From: an uncultured Actinomycetota bacterium
GTDB lineage: Bacteria > Actinomycetota > Coriobacteriia > Anaerosomatales > JAGXFU01
DNA: 64,000 nt
Assembly: GCA_963790405.1 (NCBI GenBank)
Contig: CAWBOJ010000003.1
Span: 398,873 to 462,872 of the forward strand
Direction: 5' to 3'
Positions 29,583 to 63,287 of this stretch are shown here, piece by piece. The position numbers were made by a program, and so were the translations under genes. The notes under the pieces are model-generated. The model was not told the origin of the DNA, did not search any database, and saw nothing but the letters and a program-made list of their open reading frames with translations. Numbering within the stretch: the stretch's first letter is position 1; every line of letters begins with the position of its first letter.

Positions 29583-31196
<1,614 letters not shown>

Positions 31197-34430: not shown

Positions 34431-34437
34431 CACAGGG

Positions 34438-34461
34438 CCTGCGCGACTCTTTGCGCGCAGG
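34438..34461 (+). terminator. stem-loop after the M28 peptidase gene
   Basis: CCTGCGCG-actctttg-CGCGCAGG, 8 nt after the stop. Confidence 0.4.
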
Positions 34462-34514
34462 GGAGCAGTGGTGCGGGATTGTACGCTCGCAGGGCGTCGG
34501 GTTCGTCCGGAAGC

Positions 34515-34567
34515 ATATGATAAAAACGTACGAAACAGTTCACAAAGTCCGACGTATCTATCATAAT
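34515..34567. promoter_or_regulatory. AT-rich imperfect inverted repeat upstream of abiEi (candidate promoter/operator)
   Basis: ATATGATAAAAACGT ... ACGTATCTATCATAAT. The arms are near-complementary. Ends 7 bp before ATG 34574, in a locally AT-rich island. Confidence 0.3.
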
Positions 34568-34573
34568 GACCCC

Positions 34574-36998: not shown

Positions 36999-37266
36999 GC
37001 CGATCAGCGCGAGGTCGCCGCGCGCCGTGCTCGGCTCGGCCGAGGGCGCGAGCCAGTCGGAGCTTCTCGGCCAGTTTGGGTCGCTGCGGCAAGGTTCGAC
37101 TTGGCCATGAAATCCACCTCACAAGGGCAGACGGCGACGGGTTCCATCGCCGCGAATCGGGCAGATACTCTAGCGGCGGGCGCATTGGTGCAGGTCAAGG
37201 TGTAACGTGCGGTATGCGCCCCCACAGATGAGTGTTCCACACTTTGGACACGATGAGAGGTACGGG

Positions 37267-38811: not shown

Positions 38812-38848
38812 CCGCGCGGAGGGTCGCTCGGGACACAAGGAGGTCGTC

Positions 38849-40510
<1,662 letters not shown>

Positions 40511-40514
<4 letters not shown>

Positions 40515-41701
40515 GCGCCACCGTCATCACAGGCATCGGCGAGCTCGTGACCTGCGATTCGACGCTTGGCGACGGGAGCCCGCTCGGCATCGTGCGAGAC
40601 GCGGCGATCGTCATCGAGGGCGATCGCGTGGCGTGGGTCGGTGCCGCCAGCGCCGCTTCCGCTGCAGACGAGCGCGTGGATGTCGGCGGTCGCGCGGTCG
40701 TGCCCGGCTTCGTCGACAGCCACACGCACCTGGTCTTCGCCGGGGAGCGCTCGGCCGAGTTCGCCGCGCGCATGGCCGGCGAGCCCTACACCGGCGGCGG
40801 CATCATGACGACGGTCGCTGCGACGCGCGCTGCTTCTGCCGAGGAGCTGCGCGCGAACACGCGCCGGCTCGCCGACGAGATGCTCGGGTTCGGCACCACC
40901 ACGGTCGAGATCAAGAGCGGCTACGGGCTCACCGTTGCCGACGAGGTGAAGCTGCTGCAGGTCGCACGCGAGTTCACCTCCGAGACGACGTTTCTCGGCG
41001 CGCATGTCGTGCCTGCCGAGTACGCGGACGATCGCGCTGCGTACGTCGCGCTCGTCACGGGCGAGATGCTTGAGGCGTGCGCTCCGCTCGCACGCTGGAT
41101 CGACGTCTTCTGCGACACCGGCGCGTTCGATGAGGATGAGACCCGCGCGATCCTCTCGGCGGGTGTCTCGGCGGGACTGATGCCGAAGCTGCACGGCAAC
41201 CAGCTGGAGCACGGGCCTGGCGTGCGCCTCGCGGTGGAGTTCGAGGCCGCGAGCGTCGATCACTGCACGCACCTCACCGATGGCGACATCGAAGCCCTGC
41301 GCGATTCCGACGTCGTGGCTACGCTGCTTCCCGGTGCCGACTTCTCTACGCGAGGGCCGTATCCCGACGCCCGCAAGGTGCTCGATGCGGGCGTCACCGT
41401 CGCGCTGGCGACGGACTGCAACCCGGGATCGTCGTATGTGACATCGATGCCGCTTTGCGTCGCCCTGGCGGTTCGCGAGATGCGCATGACGCCTGCCGAG
41501 GCGCTTCTCGCTGCCACCGCCGGCGGGGCCGCGGCGCTCAGACGCGCGGACGTCGGCCGCTTGTCCCCGGGAGCTGCGGCCGATTTCGTCGTGCTCGATG
41601 CCCCGAGCCACGTGCACCTGGCTTACCGGCCCGGGGGCCGCCTTGTGAGCGCGGTGTGGCGGGGCGGAGTGTCGTCCTCGGACTTGTCGGCGTTCATGTA
41701 G
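40511..41701 (+). CDS. hutI: imidazolonepropionase
   Basis: 396 aa, intact. '[14 protein letters not shown]', '[11 protein letters not shown]', 'HGNQL', 'ATDCNPGS'. 4-bp overlap with hutU. Confidence 0.9.
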
Positions 41702-42993: not shown

Positions 42994-44353
42994 GTCACAT
43001 GTCCGCGCGTTCGAGCCGGATCACCCGCGTGCTCCTGGCTGCGGCTACACGCGGCATCGTTCGCTCGCGCTTCGGTCTGGCGTCCGCGCCTGCTCGGCGT
43101 AGTGTATTTGCCGAGGAGTGGCGCCGCGCGTTCGAGGAACTGGGGGGCGCCTTCATCAAGCTTGGTCAGATGATTTCGGTTCGGCCCGACGAGTTCGGCG
43201 ATGAACTCGCGGGCGAGATGGAGCGGCTTCGGGACAGGGTGGCTCCGGTCCCCTTTTCGAGTCTTCTTCCGGTTATCGAGGCGAGCCTGGGAGCTTCGGT
43301 ATCGTCGCTGTATGCGTCGGTTGAAGAGGTGCCGATCGCGACTGCGTCGGTGGCTCAGGTACATGGTGCCGTGCTCGCCTCGGCGTACCGGCCGGTGTGG
43401 GGCGATGAGCTGCCGGCAGGCGCGAAAGTCGTAGTGAAAGTCATCCGCCCCGGGGCGGCGGAGGCGCTGCGAGCCGATGTAGCCGAAGCTCGGCGCCTCG
43501 TGGCCAGCGCACTCGTGCACCGTGCGTTGCGCGGCGTCGATCTCGAAGCGATCCTCGACGAATTCGCGGCGTCCCTCGAACGCGAACTAGACCTGCGCGT
43601 CGAGGGCCGTATCGCCGACCGGTTCGCGTTCGACTTTCGTCCGGATCCAAGATCGTCGTGCCGAGGATCGTGTGGACGCACTCCGCGCCGCGCGTTCTCA
43701 CCATGGAGCGCATGTACGGATGGCGGCTCTCGGAGCTATCCGAGGCGGAGCTGGCCGGCGTCGACGCGCATGCCCTGGCCGTGCACGGCGCGACCGCGTT
43801 CATGCGCCAGGTCATGCTCTACGGCCGCTACCATGCCGACCTGCACCCATCGAACCTGTTCGTCACCCCCGACAGCCGGATCGCCTACCTCGACTTCGGC
43901 ATCGTGGGTCACCTGACCGACGCCGAGCGCGGCGACATCGCGCAGGTGCTCGGCGGCTTCGTCTACCGAGACGCCGACCGGGCGCTTCGGTACTCGGCCA
44001 ACCTCGGCGTGGTTGTTCCACCGCACAAGGTGGCAACAGTGCGCCGAGAGCTCGGTGAGCTGCTCGACAAGACGATGGCGGGTGGAAGCAGCGACTTTCG
44101 CCACTTCGGCCTCGGGTTCCTTGGCCTGCTGAGGCGCAACGGAATCGCGATCCCCGGCGGCTACGGGCTGCTCGTCAAGTCGCTTGCGACGGTCGAAGGT
44201 GTCGCGCGGCGGCTCTACCCCGACATCGACATCATGGAGGTCGCGCGTCCATTCGTGACCCGCATGATCGGCGACAGCATCGGCCGCCCGGAGACGCTGC
44301 AGCAGCGGATTCCGGCGGTGTGGCGTGCCGCGATGCGCGAGCTTCTGGCATAG
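42990..44353 (+). CDS. ABC1/UbiB (AarF) family atypical kinase, frame-disrupted near 43645
   Basis: 'LGGAFIKLGQMISVRPDEF', 'IATASVAQVHGA', 'VVKVIRPG' (ORF 42990-43916), then 'VLTMERMYG', 'GRYHADLHPSNLFV', 'YLDFGIVG' in ORF 43658-44353. Confidence 0.8.
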
Positions 44354-46572: not shown

Positions 46573-47788
46573 GTGCAGGTACTCGTCATCAACTCCGGCT
46601 CGAGTTCGGTGAAGTACGAGCTGTTCGAGATCGATCCGACCGCGGTCGCTGCTGAGAGGCGAGGTCGAGCGCATCGGCCAGGCGGGCGCCGCCGCGCGAC
46701 CATCACGAGGCACTGGGCATCGTCTTCGGCGTGCTTGAAGACGCCGGAGTCGCCGGCGAGCATCGCAGACATCGTGGCGGTCGGACACCGGGTCGTGCAC
46801 GGTGGCGACCGCTTCGCCGAGCCCGGTGATCGATCGACGAGACGTGCTCGCCGGCATTCGCGAGCTCGAGCTGCTCGCGCCGCTGCACACGAAGGCCAAC
46901 GTCGCCGGCATCGAGGCGGCGCGCGCATGGCTGCCGGGTGTGCGTGCACGTCGCGGTGTTCGACACCACGTTCCACCGCACGATGCCCGCGCATGCACGC
47001 GAGTACGCGCTGCCGCGCGAGCTCGCCCGCGAGCATGGCATCCGCCGCTACGGCTTCCACGGCACGTCGCACGAGTACGTTGCCCGCCGCGCGGCCGCGA
47101 TGCTGGGCCGCCCGCTCTCCGAGCTGAACCTGATCACGCTGCACCTGGGCAACGGGGCGAGCGTCTCGGCGATCGAAGGCGGACGCAGCATCGACACCTC
47201 GATGGGCATGACGCCGCTCGAGGGGCTCGTCATGGGCACGCGCTGCGGAGACGTCGACCCGGCCGTGCCGATGCTCCTCGGCGAGATCACGGGTCGCTCG
47301 CGCGAGGAGGTGCACCACCTGCTCAACTTCGAGAGCGGCTTGCTCGGCCTGAGCGGCGAGAGCGACATGCGCGAGGTCCACCGGCTCGCCGAGCGAGGGC
47401 GACCCGGACGCCGCGGCTCGCTCTCGAGATGTTCTGCTACCGCGCCAAGAAGTACCTGGGTGCGTACTATGCCGTGCTCGGCCACGTGGATGCGGTCGTG
47501 TTCACGGCGGGCATCGGGGAGCACGACCCGGAGGTCCGGGCGCGCATCTGCTGCCGGTCTCGAGCGTCTCGGAATCGAGATCGCCGAGGAGGAGAACCGG
47601 CGTCCGCAAGCAGAAGGCGGATGCGCCGCGAGCATCCGGCGGCGACGCCCGCCCCGGCGAGCGCGTCATCAGCCCGCCTGGCGCCGAAGTCGCCGTGCTG
47701 GTTGATCCCGACCGACGAAGAACTCGAGATCGCGCGCGCGGCGTTCGCGTGCGTGCGACAGTCAACGACGACCCCGACCGAGGAGTGA
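46573..47788 (+). pseudogene. ackA: acetate kinase, at least 5 frame disruptions
   Basis: 'MQVLVINSGSSSVKYELF', '[10 protein letters not shown]', 'LAPLHTKAN', '[13 protein letters not shown]', '[13 protein letters not shown]', '[19 protein letters not shown]', '[15 protein letters not shown]', '[11 protein letters not shown]' are all present but distributed over all three forward frames. Confidence 0.8.
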
Positions 47789-47794
47789 TCGGCC

Positions 47795-50189
47795 ATGACC
47801 GACGCCGATGGCGCAGACTGGCCGCCCGGACCGCTCTCACCCGACGAACTCGCGCTCGATCGACGCCTACTGGCGCGCGGCGAACTACCTGGCCGTCGGC
47901 CAGATCTACCTGCTCGACAACCCGCTGCTGAAGCGGCCTCTCACTGCTGAGGACGTGAAGTCGAGGCTCCTCGGCCATTGGGGAACGACTCCCGGGCTGA
48001 ACCTCATCTACGCGCACCTCAACCGCGTCATCAAGGCCCACGATCTCGACATGATCCTCGTGACCGGGCCGGGGCACGGTGGCCCGGCGATCGTGGCCAA
48101 CACGTGGCTCGAGGGCACGTACAGCGAGCGCTACTCGGCGGTCTCGCGCGACGCCGACGGGATGCACCGGCTGTTTCGGCAGTTCTCGTTTCCCGGCGGG
48201 ATCCCGAGTCACGTCGCAGCCCAGATTCCCGGCTCGATCCACGAGGGGGGCGAGCTCGGCTACTCGCTGTCCCACGCGTTCGGCGCGGCGTTCGACAACC
48301 CCGACCTCATCGTCACATGCGTCGTGGGCGACGGCGAGGCCGAGACGGGCCCGCTCGCCACGGCGTGGCATTCGAACAAGTTCCTGAACCCGGTCACCGA
48401 CGGTGCGGTCCTGCCGATTCTGCACCTGAACGGCTACAAGATCGCCAACCCTACCGTGCTCGCGCGCATCCCGCACGACGACCTCGAAGCGTTGATGATC
48501 GGCTACGGCTGGAAGCCCTACTTCGTCGAAGGCGACGATCCGGCGCTCGTGCATCAGGCGATGGCCGCGACTCTCGATGACGTACTCGCAGAGATTCGCG
48601 AGATCCAGGCCGAGTGCCGCGCCGGCAACCTGTGCACCTCACGCCGCTGGCCGATGATCGTACTCAAGACGCCCAAGGGCTGGACCGGACCCGACAAGGT
48701 CGACGGCCATCAGGTCGAGGGCACGTGGCGGGCGCATCAGGTGCCCATCGACAAGGTGCGCCAGAACCCCGAGCACCTCGCCATCCTGGACGGGTGGCTA
48801 CGCAGCTACCGGCCCGAGGAGCTCTTCGACGAGAACGGCGCACCGCGGGCCGAGATAGCCGCGCTCGCTCCGACGGGCACCCGGCGGCTCGGCGACAATC
48901 CGCACGCGAATGGCGGCTTGCTCCGCCGCGAGCTCAAGATGCCGGACTTCACCGACTACGCGGTTGACGTGCCCGAGCCCGGACGTGCCACCGGCGAGGC
49001 GACTCGCGTGCTCGGCTACTTCCTGCGCGACGTGATGGCGGCCAACATGGATCGCTTCCGGGTGTTCGGCCCCGACGAGACTGCCTCGAATCGCCTCGGC
49101 GCGATCTTCGATGTCAGCAAGAAGACCTGGCTCGCGGAGCGGCTGCCCGTCGACGACGACGGGGGAGAGCTCGCCCCCGACGGACGGGTCATGGAGATGC
49201 TCTCGGAGCACACGTGCCTGGGATGGCTCGAAGGCTACGTGCTCACCGGGCGGCACGGACTGTTCAACACCTACGAGGCGTTCGTCCACATCATCGACTC
49301 GATGTTCAACCAGCACGCGAAATGGCTCGACGTGAGCAAGAACGAGGTGCCGTGGCGCGCACCGATCTCCTCGGCGACCTACCTGCTCTCCTCGCACGTG
49401 TGGCGCCAGGACCACAACGGCTTCTCGCATCAGGACCCCGGCTTCATCGACAACGTGGTCAACAAGCGCGGCGACGTGATCCGCGTCTATCTGCCGCCGG
49501 ATGCGAACACGCTGCTGTCCGTGGCCGATCACTGCCTACGTAGCACCGACTACATCAACGTGATCGTGGCAGGCAAGCAGCCCGCGCCCCAGTTCCTGGA
49601 CATGGATGCGGCCGTGAAGCACTGCACCGCGGGCATCGGGATGTTCGAGTGGGCGAGCACCGACCGAGGCGACGAGCCCGACGTCGTCATGGCATGCGCG
49701 GGCGACGTGCCCACACTCGAGACGCTTGCCGCAGTCGACCTGCTCCGCCGAGAAGCGCCCGACCTCAAGATTCGCGTCGTGAACGTGGTCGATCTCATGA
49801 CGCTCCAACCTGCCGAGGAACACCCGCATGGCCTCTCGGACCGGGCATTCGATGAGCTGTTCACCACCGACAAGCCGGTTATCTTCGCGTACCACGGCTA
49901 CCCGTGGTTGATCCACCGCCTCACCTATCGGCGCACGAATCACCACAACATCCACGTCCGCGGCTACAAGGAAGAGGGCACCACGACCACGCCGTTCGAC
50001 ATGGTGGTTCGCAACGACCTCGACCGCTTCCATCTGTTCGCCGACGCGGTCGAGCGCATCCCCAAGCTCGAGCACAAGCGCGCCCACGTGACGCAGTTCG
50101 TGCGCGACAAGCTGGTTGACCACCGCGAGTACATCGAACGCTTCGGCGAGGACATGCCCGAAGTGCGCGAATGGATGTGGGAGTGGTAG
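47795..50189 (+). CDS. xfp: phosphoketolase (xylulose-5-P/fructose-6-P), N-terminal frame break near 47858
   Basis: 793-aa ORF with '[18 protein letters not shown]', '[10 protein letters not shown]', 'GPGHGGPA', 'EGGELGYSL'. The conserved N-terminus '[21 protein letters not shown]' from ATG 47795 is offset by one extra base. Confidence 0.9.
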
Positions 50190-50224: not shown

Positions 50225-51331
50225 ATGCTTGCGCCTGTGGGTACCGAGGAGGACTTCTGGGCGGACTACGACGGGCTCTGTAGGGCGGGCGCATCGGTCA
50301 GTTTCATGGCGTTCGAGCGCGTGCACCTTGAGGACAAGCGGCGTGACGGGTGCTGGGAATCGCTCGGCAAGGTGGAGAATGGTCGCTACCTTGCTCGCAT
50401 CCCACGGCTGCTTGCAGCTGTTCCGAAGGTCCTGAGCGCGACTAAGGCTGGCGACACGCTGTACTGCTTCGGTCTCGACATCCTGGGTCTGGGGTGGGCC
50501 GTCTCCGTTCTAAGACGCAGGACGTGTCCGCTGGTGCTTGTCACGAGGGATATCCACAGAGCTCTCGTTGGTTCCAACAGTCGTGCGAGGTTGCTGCGCG
50601 CGCTGGAGCGATTCCTTGTCAAACGGACCCTCCTCGTCGTGTGCACGTCGGAGTACTACGTGACGGAGCACTACCTGGGGCAACAGGGATTGAGTGAGGC
50701 GCGCTACGTGATACTGGAGAACAAGCTGAGTCGCGAGAAGCTGCCTCCCCGGGAGCTGCCGCCGCGTGAGCGCACGGATGGTGTGCTCACGATCGGGTAC
50801 TTCGGCCTGCTGAGGTGCCAAGCGTCGTGGGACTTTCTCACACGGTTGGCCGAGGAGGGTGAGGGCCGGATTCGCGTGGTGGCAGCAGGACTGCCGACCG
50901 GAATCGAGAACATCGAGAGCGATGTGAGCGCCAGCCCGTACGTCGAGTACCGGGGACCCTATCTGTCGCCAGACGACCTGCCCGACTTGTGCGGTCGGGT
51001 CGATCTCGTGTGGACCATCTACCCACACGGCTTCGCCAATCAGCAGTGGGCACGCACCAATCGATACTACGTGGCGGGTTACTTTCGCAAGCCGATGATC
51101 GTGCAGCGAAACACACCCGACGGCTCCGAGGTTGAGCGATTGGATCTCGGACTGCCGATAGACCTTGACGCTCCTGAGCAGGCAATGGCGGCCATTCTTG
51201 GCATCACTGAAACCCAGCTGAGGCAGTGGGAGAGCAACTACGATGCGATTGATGTCGCTCGCTTCACGATCACGAATGACTACGAGCGTGTGCTTGAAGA
51301 GATGTGCGACGCCGGAGAGGAGTCAAGATGA
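50225..51331 (+). CDS. putative glycosyltransferase-like protein (GT-B-like), function uncertain
   Basis: About 368 aa. The two-lobed pattern ('IVMLAP...', 'VVCTSEYY', 'TIGYFGLLR', 'RYYVAGYFRKPMIV') is reminiscent of GT4/ExoL-like enzymes, recognised only weakly. ATGA overlap with the hemerythrin gene. Confidence 0.35.
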   Translation: MLAPVGTEEDFWADYDGLCRAGASVSFMAFERVHLEDKRRDGCWESLGKVENGRYLARIPRLLAAVPKVLSATKAGDTLYCFGLDILGLGWAVSVLRRRTCPLVLVTRDIHRALVGSNSRARLLRALERFLVKRTLLVVCTSEYYVTEHYLGQQGLSEARYVILENKLSREKLPPRELPPRERTDGVLTIGYFGLLRCQASWDFLTRLAEEGEGRIRVVAAGLPTGIENIESDVSASPYVEYRGPYLSPDDLPDLCGRVDLVWTIYPHGFANQQWARTNRYYVAGYFRKPMIVQRNTPDGSEVERLDLGLPIDLDAPEQAMAAILGITETQLRQWESNYDAIDVARFTITNDYERVLEEMCDAGEESR

Positions 51332-51719
51332 CACGCTTCGAATGGACCACGGACCTTGAGACAGGGAACGCTGATATCGACCGCCAGCACCACAGCCTGT
51401 TCGAGCTGGCGAACAAACTCGAGGAAGCACTCGAAAGCGATGCCACCGATGAGGACGCGATCGCTGATGCTATCTGGGGTCTGAGCGACTACGTCGTCGA
51501 GCACTTCAGGGACGAGGAAGCGCTCATGACGGAATCAGGATTCCCGACATTGCGGGCCCACAAGCTGCAGCACACACGCCTCGCTGCTCAAACACTGCAG
51601 CTCGCTGCGGACTACTTCAATGGCGAGGAAATCGCTGCGACCAGAATCGGTCCGTTCGTGGCCTCATGGCTCAAGGAGCACATCCTTGCCGAAGACATGA
51701 TCCTTGCGCGGCACCTGCA

Positions 51720-51732
<13 letters not shown>
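51328..51732 (+). CDS. bacteriohemerythrin
   Basis: 'FEWTTDLETGNADIDRQHHSLFEL', 'HFRDEEALM', 'HKLQH', 'WLKEHILAEDM' form the canonical H-HxxxE-HxxxH-HxxxxD iron ligand pattern. Confidence 0.85.
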
Positions 51733-53543
<1,811 letters not shown>

Positions 53544-53802: not shown

Positions 53803-54955
53803 GTGCCTATGGACGAGACGCACAACATGGAACGGTTGCGAGCCCTGACCGGCGTGAAGTGGGGCCGGTTCGGCGACGATGTCATCCCTGCGTGGGTAGC
53901 GGACATGGACTTCGAGACAGCTCCGGCGATCACGGGCGCGCTCGCGGCGATGGTTGACACCAGCGACTTCGGCTACAACGTCGCCTCGTTCGACGACAGC
54001 GTGCCCATCGGCGTGGGCGGAGTGGTCATCTCGGCGCTTCGGCTGGAAGCCCGACGTCGACCGGGCCAAGGTGTTCGCCAACGCGCTGCAGCCCATCGCG
54101 GCATCGCTTGCGATCGCCACGTCGCCGGGTGATGGCGTGCTTCTCTTCACCCCCGTGTACCCGCCGTTCTTCGGCATGGTCGAAGGGTCGGGCAGGCGGC
54201 TTGTCGAGTATCCGCTCGACGCGAACGGGTGGCGCATAGACGCGGAGTCCCTGCGGTCCGCTGTCGATTCTGGTACGCGCGCGCTCATCTTGTGCAACCC
54301 GCACAACCCGAGTGGTCGCTCGTTCGATGCGGGCGAGCTCGAGGCGGTGATGACGGTCGCCGCGGAGCGCGATCTTCTCGTCATCAGCGATGAAATCTGG
54401 CAAGACATCGTGTATCCGGGTGGCGCGGGGCACATCCCGTTCGCCTCGCTCGGACCCGAGGCTGTGGAGCGATCGATCGTGGTGACCTCGGCGAGCAAGA
54501 GCTTCAACCTTGGTGGTCTGAGCTGTGCCGTTGCGCACCTTGGACACGCAGCTGTCCGAGAAGGGCTCGACGTCATGGTCCCTCACCTGCTCGGCGGGGT
54601 GAACGCGCTCGGTGCGCGGGCGACGCTCGAAGCGTGGACGCATGGAGAGGCCTGGCTGGACGAGACGGTCGATGTCCTTCGGGCGAATCGCGACCACCTG
54701 CTGGCGAGGTTCGCCGCCGAGCTCCCGGACGTGCGCATCGAGGTTCCCGAAGCCACCTACCTGGCGTGGCTCGATTTCTCCGCCACGACGATCGCGGCCA
54801 ACCCGGCGAAGCGTCTGCTCAGGCGGGGTCGCGTCGCGTTATCTCCGGGACCCGACTTTGGAGTGGCAGGCGAGGGATTCGCGCGGCTCAACTTCGCGAC
54901 CCATCGTGAGGTGCTCGACGAGATCATCGACCGCATCGTCGGAATCGTCGCGTGA
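53803..54955 (+). CDS. MalY/PatB-type PLP-dependent C-S lyase/aminotransferase, frame-disrupted near 54000
   Basis: 'KWGRFGDDVIPAWVADMDFETAP' (ORF 53803-54132), then 'CNPHNPSGR', 'SDEIWQD', 'TSASKSFNLGGL' (ORF 53954-54955). Confidence 0.8.
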
Positions 54956-55337: not shown

Positions 55338-56505
55338 TTGTTCATTCTCGACGAGCCGTACGTGTCCGACTTCCTCGCGTCGTCCGTTGCCGCCTCCGGG
55401 GCTGCCGTTCTCGATACGCCCATGGCGCGCCGGCACTTCGCCGATGGCTCCGTTTCGCTGCTGTCATCCGAGCAGTTTGCGGCCAAAGCCTCCGTTCCCG
55501 GGACGCGCATCTACGCGAACTCGGAAAACGCGATCGGGTGGATCGCACAGAACCTGTCGGGAACGGATCTTCCACGGCAGATCGGGCTGATGAAGGACAA
55601 AGTCGCATTCCGGGAGCTCATCTCGGAGCTGCACCCGGGCTATGTGTATCGCGAGGTCGCGGCTGGAGCGCTTGGCGATGTCGACCTCTCGCAGCTGCCC
55701 AAGCCGTTCGTGATCAAGCCGGCTGTTGGGTTCTTCAGCGTGGGCGTGCGCGTCGTCGAGAGCGACGCGGACTGGCCGGCGGCCATCGCGTCGATCGGGC
55801 GCGACATCGAGCGTGCCGAGCAGCTCTACCCCGCAGCAGGTCTTGAGCCTCGATCGCTTCATCATCGAAGAGGCGATCGAGGGCGAGGAGTTCGCGGTCG
55901 ACGCCTACTTCCGGGCAGACGGCACGCCGGTCGTGCTCAACATCATGGCGCACCTGTTCGCCTCGGCAGACGATGTGAGCGATCGTGTCTACTACACCTC
56001 GCCGTCGGTGGTTCAGCGTTGGCTCGTGCCCGTGACCGAGTACCTGGCACGAGTCGGTGAGCTGGCCGGCTTGCGCGACTTCCCGGTCCACGCGGAGCTT
56101 CGAGCGGACGAAGCCGGGCAGTTGGCCGCGATCGAGATTAACCCGATGCGCTTCGGCGGGTGGTGTGCGGCCGACATGTCCTGGTACGCGAACGGATTCG
56201 ACCCCTACGCGTACTACCTGAGCGACGCGGCGCCCGATTGGGACGCGGTCGTCGCACGTCGCGCGGGCACGGTGACGGGGCTGGTGGTCGCGGACTTCGC
56301 AGCGCAGATTCCTCGGCAGAAGATCGAATCGGTCGACTACGATGCGTTCACCGCTCGCTTCACCAAGCCACTGGACCTGAGGCGGACGGACTTTCGCACG
56401 CATCCGGTGTTCGGATTCTTGTTCGTCGAGTGTGCCGAGAACGACATGAGCGAGCTGCACGACGTCCTACACGCCGACCTGAGCCGCTACCTCACCATGC
56501 GGTAG
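55338..56505 (+). CDS. ATP-grasp domain protein, frame-disrupted near 55840
   Basis: 'KDKVAFRELI', 'PFVIKPAVGFFSVGV' (ORF 55338-56060), then 'FIIEEAIEGEEFAVDAYF', 'HAELR...AAIEINPMRFGG' (ORF 55726-56505). TTG start is uncertain. Confidence 0.7.
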
Positions 56506-56539
56506 CGGCACGGGACGGTTGCCCGAAGGGCTCGGCGGG

Positions 56540-57298
56540 CTAACTCGGGATGAGCGTGTTGGCGAAGACCAGCCAGGCGAGCAGCGACTTGGAAAACAGG
56601 CTCAGGAACACGTAGGTGACTTCGCCGAACACGTAGTCACGCCACGGGCCGATCTTCTTGTACTGCAGCACCATGTTGATGGCGAAGGTGTTGAAGAACA
56701 GGAACATCGTGAAGAAGATGGCGTAGACGAATCCCGGGGGCTCGGCGATTGCCCCGGGACCCCATAGGTAGATGCTGATCGCCAGCCACGGAAACACGCC
56801 TGTGATGCAGCCGAAGACAAATGACATCCAGTTCGGATTGCCGGGAGTCTCATAGTGCTCCATGAGCAGGCCGAACAAGATCATCGAGACGTTGGCTCCG
56901 GCGATGCCGATAATCGCGGCCACATCGAAGACGCCCGGAAGCAATCCGATGAGTACGACCATGAGAGTCGATGAGAAGGCATACTCGATCCAGCGTGCGT
57001 AGTTGCGTTCGCGCCTCAGGTTCTTCACGTACCAGTCGAAGACGCCGGGGGAGGCAATGATGAAGTGCGCGAGCGCGGACATGAACACGAATGCCGCCAC
57101 TGCGAGGCCAAGAGGAATCTCGAATAGTGTCTCCGGTGAGCCCGGGGGCGTGCCCGGAGGGCCCTGCAGCAGGCTGATAGTCACGGGCAGCTTGAAGTCA
57201 TTGGACAGCGCTACGATGGCCACGCCCTGCCCGAAGTGGAACAACCCCATCACAAGGTTGTAGAGCCTGAGCCGTGTGAATCGTTTGTCTTCAGCCAT
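56540..57298 (-). CDS. heliorhodopsin
   Basis: 252 aa, 7 TM, intact. Family motifs along the whole length: 'ALSNDFKLP', 'GPPG', 'RWIEYAFSST', 'GANVSMILFGLL', 'FGCITGVFPW', 'PPGFVY', 'FLFFNTFA', 'LQYKK', 'LSLFSKSLLAW' (TM7 Lys). Confidence 0.85.
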   Translation of the reverse strand: MAEDKRFTRLRLYNLVMGLFHFGQGVAIVALSNDFKLPVTISLLQGPPGTPPGSPETLFEIPLGLAVAAFVFMSALAHFIIASPGVFDWYVKNLRRERNYARWIEYAFSSTLMVVLIGLLPGVFDVAAIIGIAGANVSMILFGLLMEHYETPGNPNWMSFVFGCITGVFPWLAISIYLWGPGAIAEPPGFVYAIFFTMFLFFNTFAINMVLQYKKIGPWRDYVFGEVTYVFLSLFSKSLLAWLVFANTLIPS

Positions 57299-57581
57299 TG
57301 CATCCTCCGGATGAGTCCTCAGGTGTCGCCATTCTCGGCCCGTCGCGTCACTCGAAGGGGTTCCTACCCAATGTCGGCGTGGTCCACCTTGTGAGCGGCA
57401 GTGTTCGAACACCAGGGTGCTGAGCAGCTCTCATGGCACACGGTGTGCTACACTGCGCAAGGCTTTTCCCAAAGACCCGGTTGTCTTCGCGTCGCCACCG
57501 ATGGCGACGACCTTCTAGAGCAACTGCGTCTGCAACGCGGTGCCGCCTGACTTGGCCGGCACGCTCGAAGGAGACAACTGA

Positions 57582-58817
57582 ATGTCGTTTGAATCACTCG
57601 GCCTTGAGCCGCGCCTTCTGTCTGCTGTGGACAAGATGGGCTACACCGACCCGACCCCGATACAACGCGAGGCCATTCCCCACGTGCTGGCAGGACGTGA
57701 TGTCGTTGGCGTCGCGCAGACCGGCACCGGCAAGACCGCGGCGTTCGTGTTGCCGATGCTGCAACGGATTCCGACCAAGCGTGGCGTTCGGGCGCTTGTC
57801 GTCACCCCCACCCGTGAGTTGGCATCGCAGATAGCCGAGGTTACACGTGACGCAGCGCGCGGTACGCACCACCGGGCAGCCGTGATTTTCGGTGGCGTGG
57901 GGCAGAAGCCCCAGGTCGACGCTTTGCGGCGTGGAGTCGACATCGTGATCGCGTGTCCTGGTCGCCTGCTCGATCTGCATTCCCAGGGCGCCATCGACCT
58001 GTCCCATGTCGAGACCGTCGTGCTCGACGAGGCCGATCGCATGCTGGACATGGGTTTTTGGCCGGACGTGCGCCGCATCCTGGCGCTGCTTCCCGCCAAG
58101 CGCCAGAACCTGCTCTTCAGCGCAACGATGGCTCCAGAGGTCATCAAGGTCGTCAACTCGGTACTCACCGACCCCGTTCGCATCGAGACCTCACCTCCGG
58201 CCAAGCCGGTCGATAATGTCGACCAGACCGTCTACCCGGTGTGCAACACGCAGAAGACCGATCTGCTCGTTGAGCTGCTCGCCCGCAACCACGGATCGCG
58301 CACGCTCGTGTTCACCCGCACCAAGCATCGCGCGGATCGAGTGAGCCGACAGCTGTCCAAGAGAGGCGTGCGCAGCGAGGCGATTCACGGAGACCGTTCG
58401 CAGAATCAACGCGAGAAGGCGCTGCACTCGTTCCGCACGGGTCGATCGCACGTCCTTGTGGCGACCGATGTTGTGGCGCGCGGCATCGACATCGACAAGA
58501 TCACCCATGTCGTCAACTACGACATTCCTCATACTACCGAGGATTACGTGCATCGCATCGGTCGGACGGCGAGAGCCGGAGCCGATGGGAGCGCGATCAG
58601 CTTCCTGTCACCCGAGGAACTCGAGAAGTTCACCGCGATCGAGCGCACGCTCGACACGGTGCTGGCGTGCGAGGATCTTGACGGTTTCCACTACAAGGAG
58701 CGCACCGTGCCTGATCCGCAGCGCACAGCCACTCCCGCGCCCAAGGTCGGTTCGGGTGGCGGCAACTCGCGTTCACGGGGCAGCCGCAGAGGCGGTCGGG
58801 GTCGTCGCGGAAACTAG
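57582..58817 (+). CDS. DEAD-box ATP-dependent RNA helicase (RhlE-like) with Arg/Gly-rich tail
   Basis: Q-motif 'TPIQ', 'AQTGTGKT', 'PTRELA', 'DEAD', 'SAT', 'HRIGRTARAG'. C-terminal 'GSGGGNSRSRGSRRGGRGRRGN'. Confidence 0.9.
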   Translation: MSFESLGLEPRLLSAVDKMGYTDPTPIQREAIPHVLAGRDVVGVAQTGTGKTAAFVLPMLQRIPTKRGVRALVVTPTRELASQIAEVTRDAARGTHHRAAVIFGGVGQKPQVDALRRGVDIVIACPGRLLDLHSQGAIDLSHVETVVLDEADRMLDMGFWPDVRRILALLPAKRQNLLFSATMAPEVIKVVNSVLTDPVRIETSPPAKPVDNVDQTVYPVCNTQKTDLLVELLARNHGSRTLVFTRTKHRADRVSRQLSKRGVRSEAIHGDRSQNQREKALHSFRTGRSHVLVATDVVARGIDIDKITHVVNYDIPHTTEDYVHRIGRTARAGADGSAISFLSPEELEKFTAIERTLDTVLACEDLDGFHYKERTVPDPQRTATPAPKVGSGGGNSRSRGSRRGGRGRRGN

Positions 58818-59083: not shown

Positions 59084-60661
59084 GTGCTCATCTTGATTGC
59101 CGAGGCCGTGACGGTCTATCTGATTGTTCTTCTCGTGCACTCGCTCCGTCACCGCGTGGGGCTCGGCCCTTTCTACGCAACGCTCGGTGGCCTGACGGTG
59201 ATCATGTCGTGGGTGACCGATATCGGCATCCGTCTCGAGGTCGGCGGCCTCACGTTCCTTGTCGGTTCGACCGTCTTCTACACGGCGATTCTGCTCGGCG
59301 TGTTTGTCGTGTACGTGTTCGACGGTCCGGGGCCGACCCGGACGGCGATCTTCACGGTTGCGGGCATGTCCATCCTGGCTCCGCTTGTTGGTGCTGCGCT
59401 GCAGGTGCAACTGCTGGCGCTCGGCCAGGACGCGTCCACGTTCATCCTCCACCCCAGTCTGCGGATTAACACGGCTTCGGTGTTTGCGACTATCGCGGAT
59501 CTTGTCTTCCTGGCTGTTGTGTGGGAACTCTTGGGTAGGCCCGGCTTCCCGTTTCGCACTTGGATCAGGACGTATCTGACTCTGCTGGGCGTCATGTGTC
59601 TCGACGTGGTGCTGTTTTCAACGGGCGCCTTCGCGGGCACACCCGCCTACTTGAGCATCATGTCGGGCACGCTCGCCACGCGTGTGATCGTGGCGACGTT
59701 CGCCGGCCCGCTCCTCTACGGCTATCTCGCCTGGCAGAACAGCGCAAAGGGTGCGGAGATCGAGAGCCGTCCCGCCCTGGCGATCTTCATGGAGGTAGCT
59801 CAGGTTCGTGAAAGTCTCCGCGTTGCCGAGCAAGAGATCGAACGTCGGATAGCGGCCGAGCAAGAGCTCGAAGCGCACAAGAATCATCTGGAGGAACTTG
59901 TCGCGGAGCGTACGAGGGACCTCGTCGAGGCCAATATCGGGCTCGAGGAGGCCAACGAGGCCAAGCGGATCTTCCTGGCGAACATGAGCCACGAGCTCCG
60001 GACGCCTTTGAACTCGGTCATCGGTTTCTCTGGCACGTTGGGCAACGGAATGGCGGGTCCACTGAACGAGGAGCAGCAGCGCCAGGTCGACATGGTCAAC
60101 AACAGCGGGCGATACCTGCTCTCGCTCATCGACGATGTGCTCGATATTGCCAAGATCGAGGCCGGAGAGACGGTCTTTCACTTGAAGGCATTCGATCCCG
60201 ACGCACTCGTTCGAGAAGCGGTCGAGATGATGCGGCCATTGGCCAAGGAGCGGGGACTCGAGATATCCGTTGAGTCACTCGGCCGAGGCGAGAAGTTGCG
60301 CTCCGATCCGGCTAAGGTCAAACACGTGCTACTCAACCTGCTGAGCAACGCGATCAAGTTCACCGTGACCGGGCGTGTTGTCGTGCGCTGCGAGAGGCCT
60401 GGTGACGGATCTCTCGTGCTCTCGGTCCAGGATACCGGCCCCGGAATCGAACCTGCGGATCTGTCGCGCGTCTTCGATGCGTTCACTCAGATCGAGATTC
60501 CGGGCACGGCGAAATCGAAGGGAACTGGTCTGGGCCTGGCACTTTCGCGGGTGTATGCGGAGATGCTCGGCGGTGAAGTCACCGTCAGCAGCGAGGTCGG
60601 GGTCGGATCAGTATTCACACTTACGGTGCCGGGCAAAGGGATGAGCCACACAAGCGACTAG
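59084..60661 (+). CDS. membrane sensor histidine kinase (7-TM-like N-domain + coiled coil + HisKA + HATPase_c)
   Basis: 525 aa, intact. 'SHELRTPLNSVIGF', 'NLLSNAIKFT', 'DTGPGI', 'GTGLGLALS'. No adjacent response regulator. Confidence 0.85.
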   Translation: MLILIAEAVTVYLIVLLVHSLRHRVGLGPFYATLGGLTVIMSWVTDIGIRLEVGGLTFLVGSTVFYTAILLGVFVVYVFDGPGPTRTAIFTVAGMSILAPLVGAALQVQLLALGQDASTFILHPSLRINTASVFATIADLVFLAVVWELLGRPGFPFRTWIRTYLTLLGVMCLDVVLFSTGAFAGTPAYLSIMSGTLATRVIVATFAGPLLYGYLAWQNSAKGAEIESRPALAIFMEVAQVRESLRVAEQEIERRIAAEQELEAHKNHLEELVAERTRDLVEANIGLEEANEAKRIFLANMSHELRTPLNSVIGFSGTLGNGMAGPLNEEQQRQVDMVNNSGRYLLSLIDDVLDIAKIEAGETVFHLKAFDPDALVREAVEMMRPLAKERGLEISVESLGRGEKLRSDPAKVKHVLLNLLSNAIKFTVTGRVVVRCERPGDGSLVLSVQDTGPGIEPADLSRVFDAFTQIEIPGTAKSKGTGLGLALSRVYAEMLGGEVTVSSEVGVGSVFTLTVPGKGMSHTSD

Positions 60662-60788: not shown

Positions 60789-63116
60789 CTACTTGATGAT
60801 TCCTGCGACGCTGTCGCGAACTGACTGCGACACCGCATTCAGTCCACCGAGGTAGCGGACCTCCCCTATACGGTGCGCGTGCATCACCAGGCAGGCGCGG
60901 GTGTCGCCAGACAGCGCGTCGGGCTTGGTGAGAAGCATGACCGAGGAGTTGCGACCCTGCATCACTCCGCCTGAGAGGGCGTCGGGGAAATCGATGCCGG
61001 TCGTAACGGCTAGGCCGTCCCAGCTGAGACCGAGGTCGTTGACGCCGTACGTGGCGATCTTGGTCGCCGTCTCGTACCGGGTGTCTCCATCGATCCGCAC
61101 CGCCGAGATGCCTGCTTCAAGGATGGTTACCGAGGTCTGGGGGGTAACCGCAGCATCGCCGCCCAGAAGTATGGCCTTCTTCACGCCTGCCGCTTTCATG
61201 GCAGCGAGTGTCGAGGCGGAAACGCTGTTCTTGCCGGAGAGATAGACCGGCCATCCGCCGGCGCAGGCAAGCGGGCTGGCAGACAGGGCGTCCGCGAAGT
61301 TGTTGCCGGTTGCCACGAAGGCAGTGCCGTCATAGTCAGGGCCAAGGACATCTACCGTACGGGCTGCGATCAGCTCGGCGGTCTCGTAGCGTGTTGCGCC
61401 GCCCATTCGCTTGACCGAGAGTTTCATTCCGCGCAGGGCGGTCTCAACACTGCTCGAGACCGCGTCCGTGCCGCCCAGGATGAGCGCTCTATCCGCACCG
61501 AGCCGCTTGATCTCGGTTGCGATGACTGCCGGGACGGAATCGGTATCGACGAGCAGTACCGGTGCATCGAGCGCTCCTGCTAGCGCAGCACCACCAAGAG
61601 CGTCAGGCCAATTGCGGCCGGTCGCGATTACCACATCGTCTGCGCCGTCCGGGAACGCCTCTTTTGAGGCCGCGACGGACGTAGCGAATCGATTGGACCC
61701 TGCAACGGGGACAGGCTCGTAGTCGAGTTCCCTGTTGGTGACGTAGATGTGCGAGTAGGTGTCGCCTCCTACTTCAGCATCCGAATGGAAGGCAATCGTG
61801 TATCCGTTGGAGCTGATCGAGGGCTTGCCGAAGTCCTCGTCAGAGTCGTTTTGGCTGGGGTAGTCCTCGCTCAGGAGATCGGTCTCGCCCGTCGTCATGT
61901 CGTACACGAAGACATCTTCGGAGTCGTTGGTGTCGTTGTCGACGAGGTTCGACGCCCAGGACGAGAAGGTCACGTACCGACCGTCGGCGCTGATCGCCGG
62001 GTTCCGGGAGCAGTTGTCAGCCTCTTCAGCGGGGTCGAGGGCGACGCTGACTCGTGTCGTCACGCCATCCACGAGGTCGCGCACGAAAATATCGGAGTCG
62101 CCGTTGTTGTCGTCTTCGACGAGGTCGCCAGCGCTAGACTGGAAGGCGATGTAGCGACCATCCGAACTCAGTGACGGCCAACGCGACTGACCCTCACTCG
62201 TGTAGCCATCAAGCGAGACACTCGCAAGCGTCGTCTTTCCGTCCTTGAGATCACGCACAAAGACCTGAGGATAGCAGGAGCCGTCATCTTGACTGTCGTC
62301 GGCCAATTCGTCATGGCCGCGGAAGGCCACATACCGACCGTTTCCGGAAAGTGTCGGCCAGTGTGTCGCGTCGTCGGGAACGTCGCCGTCGTTCGAGACG
62401 CTGGCGATTTTCGTGGTGCGTAGGGCTACGTCGTAAACGAAGATGTTGGGGCAGTTGACCTCAGCACCCGGCACTATGTCAATTGCGGCCGAGCGGTAGG
62501 TGATGCGTGTGCCATCCGCGCTTATCTGCGGCCAGTCGGCGCACTCGTCATCGGAGTCGCCTGGGTCGATGCTGCCGTCGCGCTTGCTAACACAGATAGT
62601 GGTCTTGGCAACGCGATCGCGCAGGAAGATGTCTGCCGATTCGTTCACATCGTCGGCGGTGAGGTTGTCGGAGCTCGACTGGAACACCACGTATCGACCA
62701 TCGGCACTCACGGAAGGCTTGGTCGAGCAGCCGTTCCCGAGTTCTCCGCCGGTCGAGACGCTGATCAGCTCGAGTTTCCCGGTCTCCTGGTCGTAGAGGA
62801 AGACGTTGTTCTCTTCGTCTTCATCTGCGCCATCGTAGTCGGGCCAGTCGCCCGATCCATCCTCCGGGGTTCCTGCGGGTATGACGTTGGTCGCGTCCGT
62901 GTGGAACACCACGTAGCGACCGTTGCCGCTGACGCGGGCGAACTGGGAATCACCATCCATCAGCGTGCCGGATGTCGTGGTCACTCGTTCGATGGAATCT
63001 TGCACCCACTGTGCGGATGCCGTTCCCGTGAACGACATCATCGAGACGACGAATATTGCCGCTAGTAGTACTCGAACATAGCGGGCAGGACGAAATCTCC
63101 CTTTGTCTGCGGACAC
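60789..63116 (-). CDS. cell-surface protein: TolB/PD40-like beta-propeller repeats + 3 CWB2 cell-wall-binding repeats
   Basis: GTG 63116 preceded by GAGGGAGG. Signal peptide (VLLAAIFVVSMMSFTGTASA). Repeated 'S.DGRYV(A/T)F.S.A.NLV..D.N...D(I/V)F(V/L)' blades. C-terminal 'NRFATSVAASKEAFP...WPDALGG..LAG...PVLLV' x3. Confidence 0.8.
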   Translation of the reverse strand: MSADKGRFRPARYVRVLLAAIFVVSMMSFTGTASAQWVQDSIERVTTTSGTLMDGDSQFARVSGNGRYVVFHTDATNVIPAGTPEDGSGDWPDYDGADEDEENNVFLYDQETGKLELISVSTGGELGNGCSTKPSVSADGRYVVFQSSSDNLTADDVNESADIFLRDRVAKTTICVSKRDGSIDPGDSDDECADWPQISADGTRITYRSAAIDIVPGAEVNCPNIFVYDVALRTTKIASVSNDGDVPDDATHWPTLSGNGRYVAFRGHDELADDSQDDGSCYPQVFVRDLKDGKTTLASVSLDGYTSEGQSRWPSLSSDGRYIAFQSSAGDLVEDDNNGDSDIFVRDLVDGVTTRVSVALDPAEEADNCSRNPAISADGRYVTFSSWASNLVDNDTNDSEDVFVYDMTTGETDLLSEDYPSQNDSDEDFGKPSISSNGYTIAFHSDAEVGGDTYSHIYVTNRELDYEPVPVAGSNRFATSVAASKEAFPDGADDVVIATGRNWPDALGGAALAGALDAPVLLVDTDSVPAVIATEIKRLGADRALILGGTDAVSSSVETALRGMKLSVKRMGGATRYETAELIAARTVDVLGPDYDGTAFVATGNNFADALSASPLACAGGWPVYLSGKNSVSASTLAAMKAAGVKKAILLGGDAAVTPQTSVTILEAGISAVRIDGDTRYETATKIATYGVNDLGLSWDGLAVTTGIDFPDALSGGVMQGRNSSVMLLTKPDALSGDTRACLVMHAHRIGEVRYLGGLNAVSQSVRDSVAGIIK

Positions 63117-63287
63117 GGTGCCTCCCTCTCGGATAGTCAAGCATCTGTGCGCCGTCGGTCTGGCGACACACACCCCTTTCTACAAGTAGTAGCACAGCTG
63201 AGAGGGGTGCAACAGATGGAATAGAGGTAATTCCGACCAGCGGGACGGGAGACGTACATCTCGGTCAGATGCGCGTCGGCGTTTCTC

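Follow-up and report, generated by a model that had tools for sequence, protein, structure and literature searches.

The window analyzed here, a stretch of DNA 64 kb in length, contains a gene for heliorhodopsin (HeR, a light-sensing membrane protein of the retinal-binding type) at 56540..57298 on the minus strand, and its 252 aa product has K237 and E105 at the positions of the Schiff-base lysine and the counter-ion. The reading frame runs from an ATG at 57298 to a TAG stop at 56540–56542, and re-reading of the coordinates, start and stop agrees with the first-pass annotation, which had described this frame as intact. All of the motifs listed there are present in the translation (SNDFKLP, GPPGTPPG, RWIEY, NVSMILFG, FGCITGVFPW, PGFVY, FLFFNTFA, LQYK, and LSLFSKSLLAW). 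There is a longer alternative open reading frame that initiates at a GTG and reaches 57412 (290 aa). The ATG at 57298 is the homologous start, because the aligned methionine opens nine relatives, because a Shine-Dalgarno (SD) sequence, GGAGG (57304..57308, minus strand; read directly), sits five nucleotides upstream, and because there is no conservation farther upstream. Across ten clade members the sole conserved element upstream of HeR is a purine-rich block (GGAGG/GGGGG) whose spacing does not change; no conserved operator or promoter was found in this comparison, with nothing kept beyond the SD and ATG, and a scan found no sigma-70-like site upstream of HeR. The GC content at third codon positions (GC3 = 0.82) is similar to that of the neighbouring genes.

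Both of the genes that flank HeR are on the opposite strand, one convergent and one divergent, and by this geometry HeR is monocistronic, as originally proposed. Stand-alone genes of this type are the majority; in a survey of 448 HeR genes, 38.6% are co-transcribed (PMC11109279), leaving 61% by subtraction. The co-transcribed partners form ten groups (GS, NAD+ synthetase, photolyase, MerR, TerC, ABC transporter, SDR, alpha/beta hydrolase, DUF2177, and DUF2238; PMC11109279), and neither flanking gene belongs to any of them, nor does a same-strand member of these groups adjoin HeR. The convergent gene codes for an ATP-grasp protein (55338..56505, plus strand) and has a frame break near 55829, such that the Pfam ATP-grasp_4 profile is matched over two frames (positions 2–51 in 55338–56060 and 42–160 in 55726–56505), in agreement with its description as a frame-broken gene convergent with HeR. 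Removal of one C from the CCCC run at 55829–55832 repairs the frame as ...EQLYPQQVLSLD... A GC-rich hairpin with a 9 bp stem (GCCGCUACC/GGUAGCGGC; 56483..56509, minus strand) lies 31–57 nt past the HeR stop and overlaps the last codons of the ATP-grasp gene. The predicted RNA fold of this region is –36.6 kcal/mol (z = –2.3), equalled by four of 200 shuffles, and we infer a putative terminator that lacks a U-tract and perhaps acts in both directions; a simple terminator scan missed it because there is no T-run.

The divergent gene codes for a DEAD-box RNA helicase (57582..58817, plus strand; Pfam DEAD 174.8 bits, Helicase_C 121.5 bits), and the intergenic distance, estimated earlier at roughly 283 bp, is exactly 283 bp to the helicase ATG at 57582. 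The helicase-proximal part of this spacer is a conserved and structured 5′ leader (57444..57581, plus strand), which we regard as context outside of the HeR unit, leaving 57299..57443 for an HeR promoter. The leader has an extended –10-like sequence (TGTGCTACACT, 57444–57454) followed by a long-range helix that sequesters the SD of the helicase gene, and there is also an invariant hairpin. Its single-sequence fold is –56.8 kcal/mol (z = –3.3), the consensus fold has 33 pairs of which three are compensatory, and it is kept upstream of helicase orthologues at four other loci (L005, L001, L085, and L086) regardless of which gene precedes it. No Rfam match to the leader or intergenic region was found at E ≤ 1; a search of the whole window together with the intergenic region identified a single tRNA (7131–7220). 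A 252 aa ORF near the helicase in L086 was considered as a second HeR-helicase pair and rejected, as it codes for an unrelated permease-like protein.

The window has at least nine frame breaks in its 64 kb, affecting the ATP-grasp gene, an aminotransferase, a histidine kinase (HK2, twice), urocanase, an ABC1 kinase, acetate kinase (at least twice) and an ABC ATPase. Breaks are placed at 39860, 43649–43661, 47391–47408, 53999–54006 and 55829. The HeR frame is undisturbed amid these broken genes, as had been noted, and its alignment with relatives that are likewise 252 aa long is free of gaps despite the frame-broken surroundings. With breaks this frequent, chance alone would leave a 759-nt gene intact with P about 0.9, so the contrast between intact HeR and its broken neighbours should not be taken as a sign of selection. 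The first three break sites that were mapped each coincide with a run of C and a +1 shift, but two further sites do not fit a homopolymer pattern, one being at no run and with +2 shifts present. Overall, two of five breaks at runs of ≥4 is not significant against the background (about 0.1), and a homopolymer-error origin is not supported. We still lean towards the view that the frame breaks may be sequence artefacts. With so many breaks, the sequence quality of the record around HeR is uncertain.

Assignment of the gene product to the heliorhodopsin family, recognised by eye in the first instance, is borne out by profile searches. The Pfam model PF18761 is matched over all of its 242 positions (1–242) with 321.7 bits (cut-off 26.7), and with E = 3e-96 the match is far beyond chance; the NCBIfam HeR equivalog NF038020 scores 309.7 (cut-off 100), and phmmer against the PDB identifies 48C12 (2.4e-70) and TaHeR (1.2e-57). 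The lysine of TM7 and glutamate of TM3 are at the retinal-pocket positions claimed for them, with K237 aligned to 48C12 K241 and E105 to 48C12 E107; K237 lies within predicted helix G (222–245) and is invariant in 33 sequences. S233 aligns with 48C12 S237, such that the position of bacteriorhodopsin Asp212 is Ser and not Asp, and the counter-ion-stabilising residues S74 and S109 are also present. Among 36 structure-defining HeR positions (taken from PMC7049168), 32 are identical to 48C12, including K237, E105, S233, H21 and H78. The four departures (48C12 to query) are L227V, Q213M, Q247L and S201T, of which Q213M is a frequent HeR variant (PMC7049168) and gives the methionine seen in TaHeR and Cv06. 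All eight of the Schiff-base cavity residues are identical (H21, H78, N14, N99, Y90, Y106, R102, and E226, corresponding to H23, H80, N16, N101, Y92, Y108, R104, and E230 of 48C12), as are E147, Q212, Y222 and W103, which include the E149 region of 48C12.

An AlphaFold2 (AF2) model of the protein (pLDDT 84.4, pTM 0.81) has the seven hydrophobic helices that had been recognised in the sequence (residues 5–31, 63–82, 100–119, 126–149, 157–179, 189–213, and 222–245) and a predicted beta-hairpin in the A-B loop with strands at 36–41 and 56–62. Foldseek aligns the predicted model to 6SU3 with a TM score of 0.95 (rmsd 1.8 Å) and to 6IS6 with 0.89. The inverted topology anticipated for a heliorhodopsin is consistent with the positive-inside charge count, which has nine Lys and Arg residues on the N-terminal-side loops and one on the opposite side and thereby predicts an N-terminus in the cytoplasm. 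The dN/dS ratio against nine relatives is 0.11–0.16, and 88 columns are invariant across the 33 HeR sequences with every key residue among them; together, the low ratio and the invariant Lys/Glu/His/Ser retinal site argue for a maintained retinal-dependent function.

The closest named relatives of this HeR are in the Coriobacteriia/Anaerosomatales (Actinomycetota), and the window also encodes two large CWB2 cell-wall-binding proteins. The gene is very probably a canonical, functional and stand-alone HeR that is native to a high-GC, presumably monoderm actinobacterium, akin to the Coriobacteriia/Anaerosomatales-type metagenome-assembled genomes (MAGs). Lys237 in helix G is placed such that retinal would be held on it through a protonated Schiff base, with Glu105 as the likely counter-ion stabilised by Ser74, Ser109 and Ser233, and with a complete set of residues for a Schiff-base cavity that would be water-filled. 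As in the homologues 48C12 and TaHeR, illumination would isomerise all-trans retinal and the Schiff-base proton would pass into an internal cluster of His residues and water without being released, so that no ion would be pumped. A long-lived photointermediate would then alter the cytoplasmic face, where the B-C and F-G loops are rich in Lys and Arg, and the altered face would modulate a partner protein. This partner would not be one encoded in an operon with HeR, and is not nameable from the locus. We expect the protein to bind all-trans retinal, to absorb visible light, and to have a slow, non-transporting photocycle; the conserved pocket residues and the hydrophobic M198, at a position that is Glu in viral transporters, support this indirectly. 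No carotenoid- or retinal-synthesis family is represented among about 60 ORFs covering the 64 kb, in agreement with the first-pass annotation, and retinal would come either from genes elsewhere in the genome or from scavenging.

On a different interpretation, HeR would feed a two-component module for light or redox sensing, signalling within the membrane to a nearby orphan histidine kinase, as Bulzu et al. 2021 have modelled it. An enrichment of two-component domains within 10 kb of HeRs has been reported, and a role in oxidative stress proposed (PMC8612252). A VUPS-domain histidine kinase (59084–60661), a TM-PAS histidine kinase in three pieces (HK2, 51720–53543) and a hemerythrin (51304–51732), previously placed within 6 kb of HeR, are all within ~5.2 kb of it, there is no response-regulator domain among the ORFs scanned in the 50–64 kb interval, and the hemerythrin would add O2 or iron sensing to such a module. 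Clustering of all ORFs within 4 kb of HeR at 18 clade loci shows that histidine-kinase cores recur, with a kinase upstream of and divergent from HeR in seven of the 18, and there is a hemerythrin downstream of HeR at three. However, the upstream kinases have different sensor modules (two PAS, one PAS, HAMP, or VUPS) and are thus not one orthologous partner, and their alignment is limited to the kinase cores at 42–52% identity. Neither is there an enrichment close to HeR, as across 81 loci there are five kinase cores 0–4 kb away and six at 4–8 kb (p = 0.84). The kinase recurrences are all in one related subclade and so can be inherited synteny, and in the window the helicase and its leader lie between HeR and the VUPS kinase. 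We consider a two-component role to be distinctly unlikely. Other recurrences at the 18 loci are also subclade-specific synteny (e.g. an SBF-family transporter), and the idea that either the recurrent kinase cores or the SBF synteny mark one specific partner was rejected, given the differing sensor domains and the lack of proximity enrichment.

The habitats of the relatives raise a separate question. Cultivated Anaerosomatales are Gram-positive, strict anaerobes from subsurface sites (PMC9686372), and the MAG names of two HeR relatives (L018 and L019) suggest aquifer or groundwater sources, with the other relatives coming from assorted metagenomes. These names suggest lightless subsurface habitats, which is an awkward fit for a light sensor, and we found no publication that links heliorhodopsin with OPB41 or Anaerosomatales. 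If the genomes of this Coriobacteriia/OPB41-like HeR clade, which is under strong purifying selection, have no route to retinal and the habitat is dark, the role would be light-independent or linked to brief light or oxygen exposure. We hold this to be very unlikely; if true, a brief-exposure role might involve the recurrent neighbouring hemerythrin and PAS kinases. That an HeR clade occurs in lineages otherwise associated mainly with anaerobic, subsurface settings is of mild ecological interest. It is very improbable that HeR here is a relic, or is put to a light-independent use in an often-dark anaerobic lineage unable to make retinal: such a reading is compatible with the subsurface, strictly anaerobic habit of the cultivated relatives, with the groundwater and aquifer names, and with the lack of a retinal pathway in the 64 kb window, but it is at odds with the dN/dS ratio and the invariant retinal-site residues. 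Absence of the pathway from 64 kb also says little for a whole genome, and monoderms are able to import retinal or carotenoids.

Proton transport by some viral HeRs is cited in PMC11109279 and in the preprint 10.1101/2025.11.27.691015. The preprint also makes the case that a lateral fenestration, present in 91% of HeRs, binds exogenous xanthophylls. The Asn that it singles out (Cv06 N255, 48C12 N207) is present here as N203 and is near-invariant in the clade. Even so, transport is absent from 48C12 and TaHeR, its nearest characterised relatives, the position at which viral subfamily 2 has Glu (48C12 L202) is the hydrophobic Met198, the residues of the closed, proton-retaining cavity are all conserved, and the antenna proposal is based on docking and bioinformatics in the preprint. 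It is highly improbable that the protein moves ions in a light-driven or light-gated manner, as the proton-transporting viral HeRs do, or that it is mainly a carotenoid-antenna light harvester or an enzyme instead of a sensor. Coupling of HeR to the divergent helicase through the 283 bp region (e.g. by light/cold co-regulation) is exceedingly improbable even though the two are adjacent and in L005 and L001/L006 a helicase orthologue lies 5.6–7.5 kb away from HeR, as the helicase is at three of 84 HeR loci and adjacent to HeR at none of them, the conserved leader of the helicase itself takes up ~138 bp of the spacer and is also present in L001 where the upstream gene is a multicopper oxidase and on L085 and L086 without HeR in the stretch examined, the HeR-proximal spacer is unconserved, the helicase is absent from the ten published operon-partner groups, and we found no publication joining HeR and helicase in prokaryotes.

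The helicase adjacency is incidental, and the ATP-grasp gene does not recur beside HeR at the other HeR loci compared. Both the helicase and the aminotransferase have their best matches in the MAG group that also best matches HeR, which, like its GC3, speaks for a native origin of the gene. The two adjacencies probably stem from local rearrangement and not from a functional unit. The weight that the first-pass annotation placed on gene context is not supported: neither the helicase nor the ATP-grasp gene is kept beside HeR, the histidine kinases are heterogeneous and unenriched near it, stand-alone HeR genes are the majority, and an intact frame among broken ones is expected by chance. Since neither adjacency is conserved, they are a poor guide in hunting for HeR partners in the clade, and because HeR stands alone there is no partner here through which its function could be tested; these neighbours offer no new clue to heliorhodopsin function. 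We prefer the stand-alone HeR described above, which is genuine, intact and entirely typical. An identical protein (P0001) is already in NCBI/ENA on a 714,747 bp contig, there are more than 5,400 HeR homologues, and relatives at 72–79% identity carry the name 'heliorhodopsin HeR'. The significance beyond a correct annotation is small, this being one more uncharacterised HeR among thousands, with several structures solved.

With the type-1 rhodopsins (bacteriorhodopsin, proteorhodopsin, actinorhodopsin, and the sensory rhodopsins) the protein has in common a seven-helix retinal-protein architecture and the helix-G lysine. However, identities are 11–18% with TM scores of 0.50–0.67, the predicted topology is opposite, a Glu and a Ser replace the Asp85/Asp212 pair, and the Pfam model Bac_rhodopsin (PF01036) has no match at E ≤ 0.01; the protein thus lacks the profile, the Asp pair, and the predicted extracellular N-terminus that characterise type-1 members. 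The operon-coupled HeRs (AbHeR with glutamine synthetase, TfHeR with photolyase, and OcHeR with the ABC transporter OmrDE) are members of the same family and presumably act in a like mode, through contacts with other proteins on the cytoplasmic side (PMC9529153, PMC9769723, PMC11109279), but unlike them the gene here has no co-transcribed partner. The 'heliorhodopsin HeR' proteins of MAGs (Coriobacteriia, Anaerosomatales, and Actinomycetota; P0002–P0083, loci L005–L021) are 72–83% identical and 252–253 aa long, and their immediate neighbours vary by locus, with the helicase directly adjacent in this window alone. TaHeR (from Thermoplasmatales archaeon SG8-52-1; 6IS6, 7U55) is 42% identical with a TM score of 0.89, and, like the query, has Met where 48C12 has Q213, as well as the motif FAINMxLQYKKIG(K/P)W; it differs in its archaeal host and in an A-B loop without GPPGTPPG. 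With 48C12 (from an actinobacterial fosmid; 6SU3, 6SU4, 6UH3, 9LJJ) the identity is 46% over 249 aligned positions. The query has an E-F loop two residues shorter and is from another organism (64% GC), but it has in common with 48C12 the Schiff-base Lys and its Glu counter-ion, the triad of Ser and the two His residues, the Arg, Glu and Tyr of the cavity, the retinal-pocket residues M, I, F, F, M, and N, the prolines P38 and P170, and the dimer pair Y177/D125.

The minus-strand open reading frame at 56540-57298 (ATG at 57298, TAG at 56540-56542) codes for 252 aa, and all nine of the motifs quoted in the first-pass annotation are present in its translation. A mechanical ORF listing also gives a longer, GTG-initiated alternative extending to 57412. 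The ATG at 57298 is the homologous start, because the relatives (250–253 aa) start at the aligned methionine, a GGAGG lies five nt upstream (57304-57308, minus strand), and there is no conservation farther upstream. The product matches the Pfam heliorhodopsin (HeR) profile PF18761 along its entire length (positions 1–242 of 242) at 321.7 bits (cut-off 26.7; E = 3e-96), and a Pfam search of the protein returned no other family; with the NCBIfam equivalog NF038020 ‘heliorhodopsin HeR’ the score is 309.7 (cut-off 100). The top matches among solved structures are 48C12 (E = 2.4e-70) and the archaeal TaHeR (1.2e-57), and in the alignment to 48C12 the TM7 Schiff-base lysine (K241) and the TM3 counter-ion glutamate (E107) correspond to K237 and E105, at the retinal-pocket positions. 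With these profile matches and correctly placed residues, the identification as a canonical heliorhodopsin is correct and the annotation was well made.

The gene appears to be native and maintained. Comparison with nine relatives sharing 77–81% amino acid identity gives a dN/dS of 0.11–0.16 (Nei-Gojobori, with dS near 1), and 88 columns are invariant among 33 clade sequences, including all of the retinal-site residues. The GC3 of 0.82 lies within the range of its neighbours (0.76–0.89), and the best matches of the flanking helicase and aminotransferase come from the same group of MAGs as those of HeR. The gene is therefore under purifying selection, and neither contamination nor recent transfer is suggested by these comparisons. 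It is also already known, a canonical representative of an established family, with its sequence public: NCBI and ENA list an identical protein (P0001), encoded on a contig of 714,747 bp, and relatives with 72–79% identity are named ‘heliorhodopsin HeR’ by NCBI in Coriobacteriia, Anaerosomatales or Actinomycetota MAGs. Among 8,000 scored candidates, at least 5,416 are homologues at E ≤ 1e-20. The GTDB species representatives contain 307 confirmed HeR loci, the nearest of which are 80–81% identical, and the species represented by the window is thus absent among them.

The gene is convergent with an ATP-grasp gene, with the stops 34 nt apart, and divergent from a DEAD-box helicase, with the ATGs 283 nt apart, as originally described. 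With opposite-strand neighbours on both sides, its geometry predicts a monocistronic gene, and a GC-rich 9-bp hairpin past the HeR stop (56483-56509; z = -2.3) could act as a terminator for both convergent genes. Neither neighbour is a regular companion. Among 84 HeR loci, this ATP-grasp gene was found at none, and the helicase at three (L005 and L001/L006, the last two being one contig), where it is 5.6–7.5 kb away and never adjacent. The flanks differ even in close relatives, with LigD/ferredoxin at L001 and SOUL/PadR at L003. In a published survey of 448 heliorhodopsin genes, 38.6% are co-transcribed with neighbours, and thus 61% stand alone; neither a helicase nor an ATP-grasp enzyme is among the ten recurrent operon partners (PMC11109279). 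Our literature search found no published link between HeR and a helicase in prokaryotes. In one subclade (L009, L010, L011, L018 and L021) HeR has directly downstream of it (at about 0–1.2 kb) a convergent gene of the sodium/bile-acid symporter family (SBF), beyond which is a conserved ORF of about 255–300 aa with no Pfam match; the SBF gene is absent from the window.

The spacer shared with the helicase contains a conserved and strongly structured helicase leader of ~138 nt (57444-57581, plus strand). It includes an extended -10-like sequence (TGTGCTACACT) and an invariant hairpin (CACUGCGUCU-ACA-ACGCAGUG), and in the predicted RNA fold the block GGTTGTC forms a long-range helix with the helicase Shine-Dalgarno sequence, which would be sequestered. 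The single-sequence fold has a z of -3.3, the consensus fold of five sequences has 33 pairs with three of them compensatory, and a search of Rfam found nothing at E ≤ 1. The leader is kept upstream of helicase orthologues at L005 (14222-14380) and L001 (16082-16240) and on metagenome contigs L085 (5512-5680) and L086 (4018-4186). At L001 the gene upstream of it is a multicopper oxidase, and no HeR is near the helicase in the stretches covered of L085 and L086. Because the leader is conserved whichever gene lies upstream, HeR or not, the helicase comes with a regulatory unit of its own, and in the window it lies next to HeR through a local rearrangement. It is possible that the leader is a thermosensing or autoregulatory element, not described before, of cold-shock-type helicases in Coriobacteriia-like actinobacteria.

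The first-pass annotation had noted that the HeR frame is undisturbed among many broken genes. The frame is intact and the breaks are there, at least nine in 64 kb, in genes that are otherwise well conserved (at about 28.5, 39.86, 43.65, 46.8–47.4, 52.4–52.8, 54.0 and 55.83 kb), but at this density a 759-nt gene would escape with a probability of ~0.9, and its integrity therefore carries no signal. The ATP-grasp, aminotransferase (53.8 kb), urocanase and ABC1 kinase genes are each split in two frames; a TM/PAS-type histidine kinase (HK2, 51720-53543; two breaks) and acetate kinase (at least two breaks) are in three, and an ABC ATPase is a fragment. Of the five sites mapped, C4 runs account for two, and single sites fall at C3, at G3/C3 and outside any run; shifts of +1 as well as +2 occur, with no significant departure from background in homopolymer preference. 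The breaks may be real pseudogenes. We favour indel errors of long-read assembly as the probable cause, given the great length of the contig, the single frameshifts with no nonsense codons seen in frame, the otherwise high domain scores and the fact that genes of core metabolism are hit.

Two histidine kinases and a hemerythrin do lie nearby, namely HK2, the hemerythrin (51304-51732) and a VUPS-domain kinase on the plus strand (59084-60661), 1.8 kb from HeR. The VUPS (‘vitamin uptake-like sensor’, PF20973) membrane sensor is related to Vut_1/YhhQ-type transporters and is an unusual kinase input; no response regulator was found near this kinase. Kinase enrichment near HeRs has been published (PMC8612252). 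A two-component role, with HeR working with neighbouring kinases, has at most weak support: a kinase is upstream of and divergent from HeR at 7 of the 18 closest loci and hemerythrin downstream at three, but the sensor modules vary (two PAS, one PAS, HAMP, VUPS), the kinases align only in their catalytic cores, and in an internal control over 81 HeR loci the density of kinase cores is no higher at 0–4 kb (five) than at 4–8 kb (six; p = 0.84). We read the recurrence as inherited synteny inside one subclade; the hemerythrin is ~2–4 kb downstream at L010, L011 and L021. The neighbourhood offers no new handle on heliorhodopsin function.

Elsewhere, CWB2 cell-wall-binding repeats occur in two surface proteins of very large size, encoded at 20987-25219 (plus) and 60789-63173 (minus). 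One has 1,410 aa with 13 FG-GAP repeats and Big_9/cadherin-like domains, and the other has 794 aa and PD40 beta-propeller repeats; both would fit a monoderm envelope, which may include an S-layer. An AbiEi antitoxin/AbiEii nucleotidyltransferase toxin pair (type IV toxin-antitoxin/abortive infection) is at 34301-36120 (plus), where GC is slightly lower (0.60). The regions 37207-41701 and 46573-50189 (both plus) contain a histidine-utilisation cluster (histidine ammonia-lyase, the frame-broken urocanase and an amidohydrolase, probably imidazolonepropionase) and a phosphoketolase (XFP) adjoining the frame-broken acetate kinase, and PEP carboxykinase is at 29583-31196. Long ORFs of 793, 561 and 476 aa with coding-like GC3, at 10554-14022 and 15601-17031 (both plus), have no Pfam match at E ≤ 1e-5.

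A Pfam scan of ~60 ORFs covering the window identified no phytoene synthase or desaturase, lycopene cyclase, Blh or carotenoid oxygenase, in agreement with the earlier reading, which holds for the window only. The nearest HeR clade is carried by Coriobacteriia/Anaerosomatales (OPB41)-type MAGs (loci among L005–L021), and some names suggest aquifer or groundwater (Anaerosomatales bacterium Yes46-06, L018; HGW-Actinobacteria-6, L019). The Anaerosomatales in culture are strictly anaerobic and come from the subsurface, and their published description makes no mention of rhodopsins (PMC9686372); our literature search found no published link between heliorhodopsin and this lineage. We consider it improbable that the HeRs of this clade work in lineages that are anaerobic, often live without light and have no retinal supply of their own.

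Alignment and modelling show a complete retinal site, a predicted heliorhodopsin fold and the predicted topology, alongside the purifying selection. By analogy with 48C12 and TaHeR, retinal on K237 would photoisomerise, the Schiff-base proton would move to an internal His/water cluster with none released outside, the photocycle would be slow, and the signal would reach a partner protein, one not encoded beside the HeR gene, through the cytoplasmic B-C and F-G loops, which are rich in Lys and Arg. Ion transport as in viral HeRs is unlikely, because Met198 is present where those have Glu. The proposal that a lateral fenestration of HeRs binds exogenous carotenoids (preprint 10.1101/2025.11.27.691015) would be compatible with this protein, in which the Asn that it highlights is conserved as N203. 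The loops have nine Lys+Arg on the N-terminal side and one on the opposite side, which predicts a cytoplasmic N-terminus, the inverted topology of heliorhodopsins. Mapping the structurally defining residues of 48C12 (PMC7049168) through the HMMER alignment shows that 32 of 36 are identical, including the stabilising serines S237, S111 and S76 (S233, S109 and S74 here), the whole Schiff-base cavity (H23, H80, N16, N101, Y92, Y108, R104 and E230), the E149 region, the retinal pocket, two signature prolines and the dimer pair. The remaining four are substituted (L227V, Q213M, Q247L and S201T); Q213M is a frequent variant (PMC7049168), and methionine is also present at this position in TaHeR and in another HeR, Cv06. 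An AlphaFold2 model, for which 33 sequences were aligned, has good confidence (pLDDT 84.4, pTM 0.81) and predicts seven helices with a beta-hairpin in the A-B loop. It superimposes on 48C12 (PDB 6SU3) with a TM of 0.95 at 1.8 Å and on TaHeR with 0.89, whereas type-1 rhodopsins reach only 0.50–0.67, with 11–18% identity.
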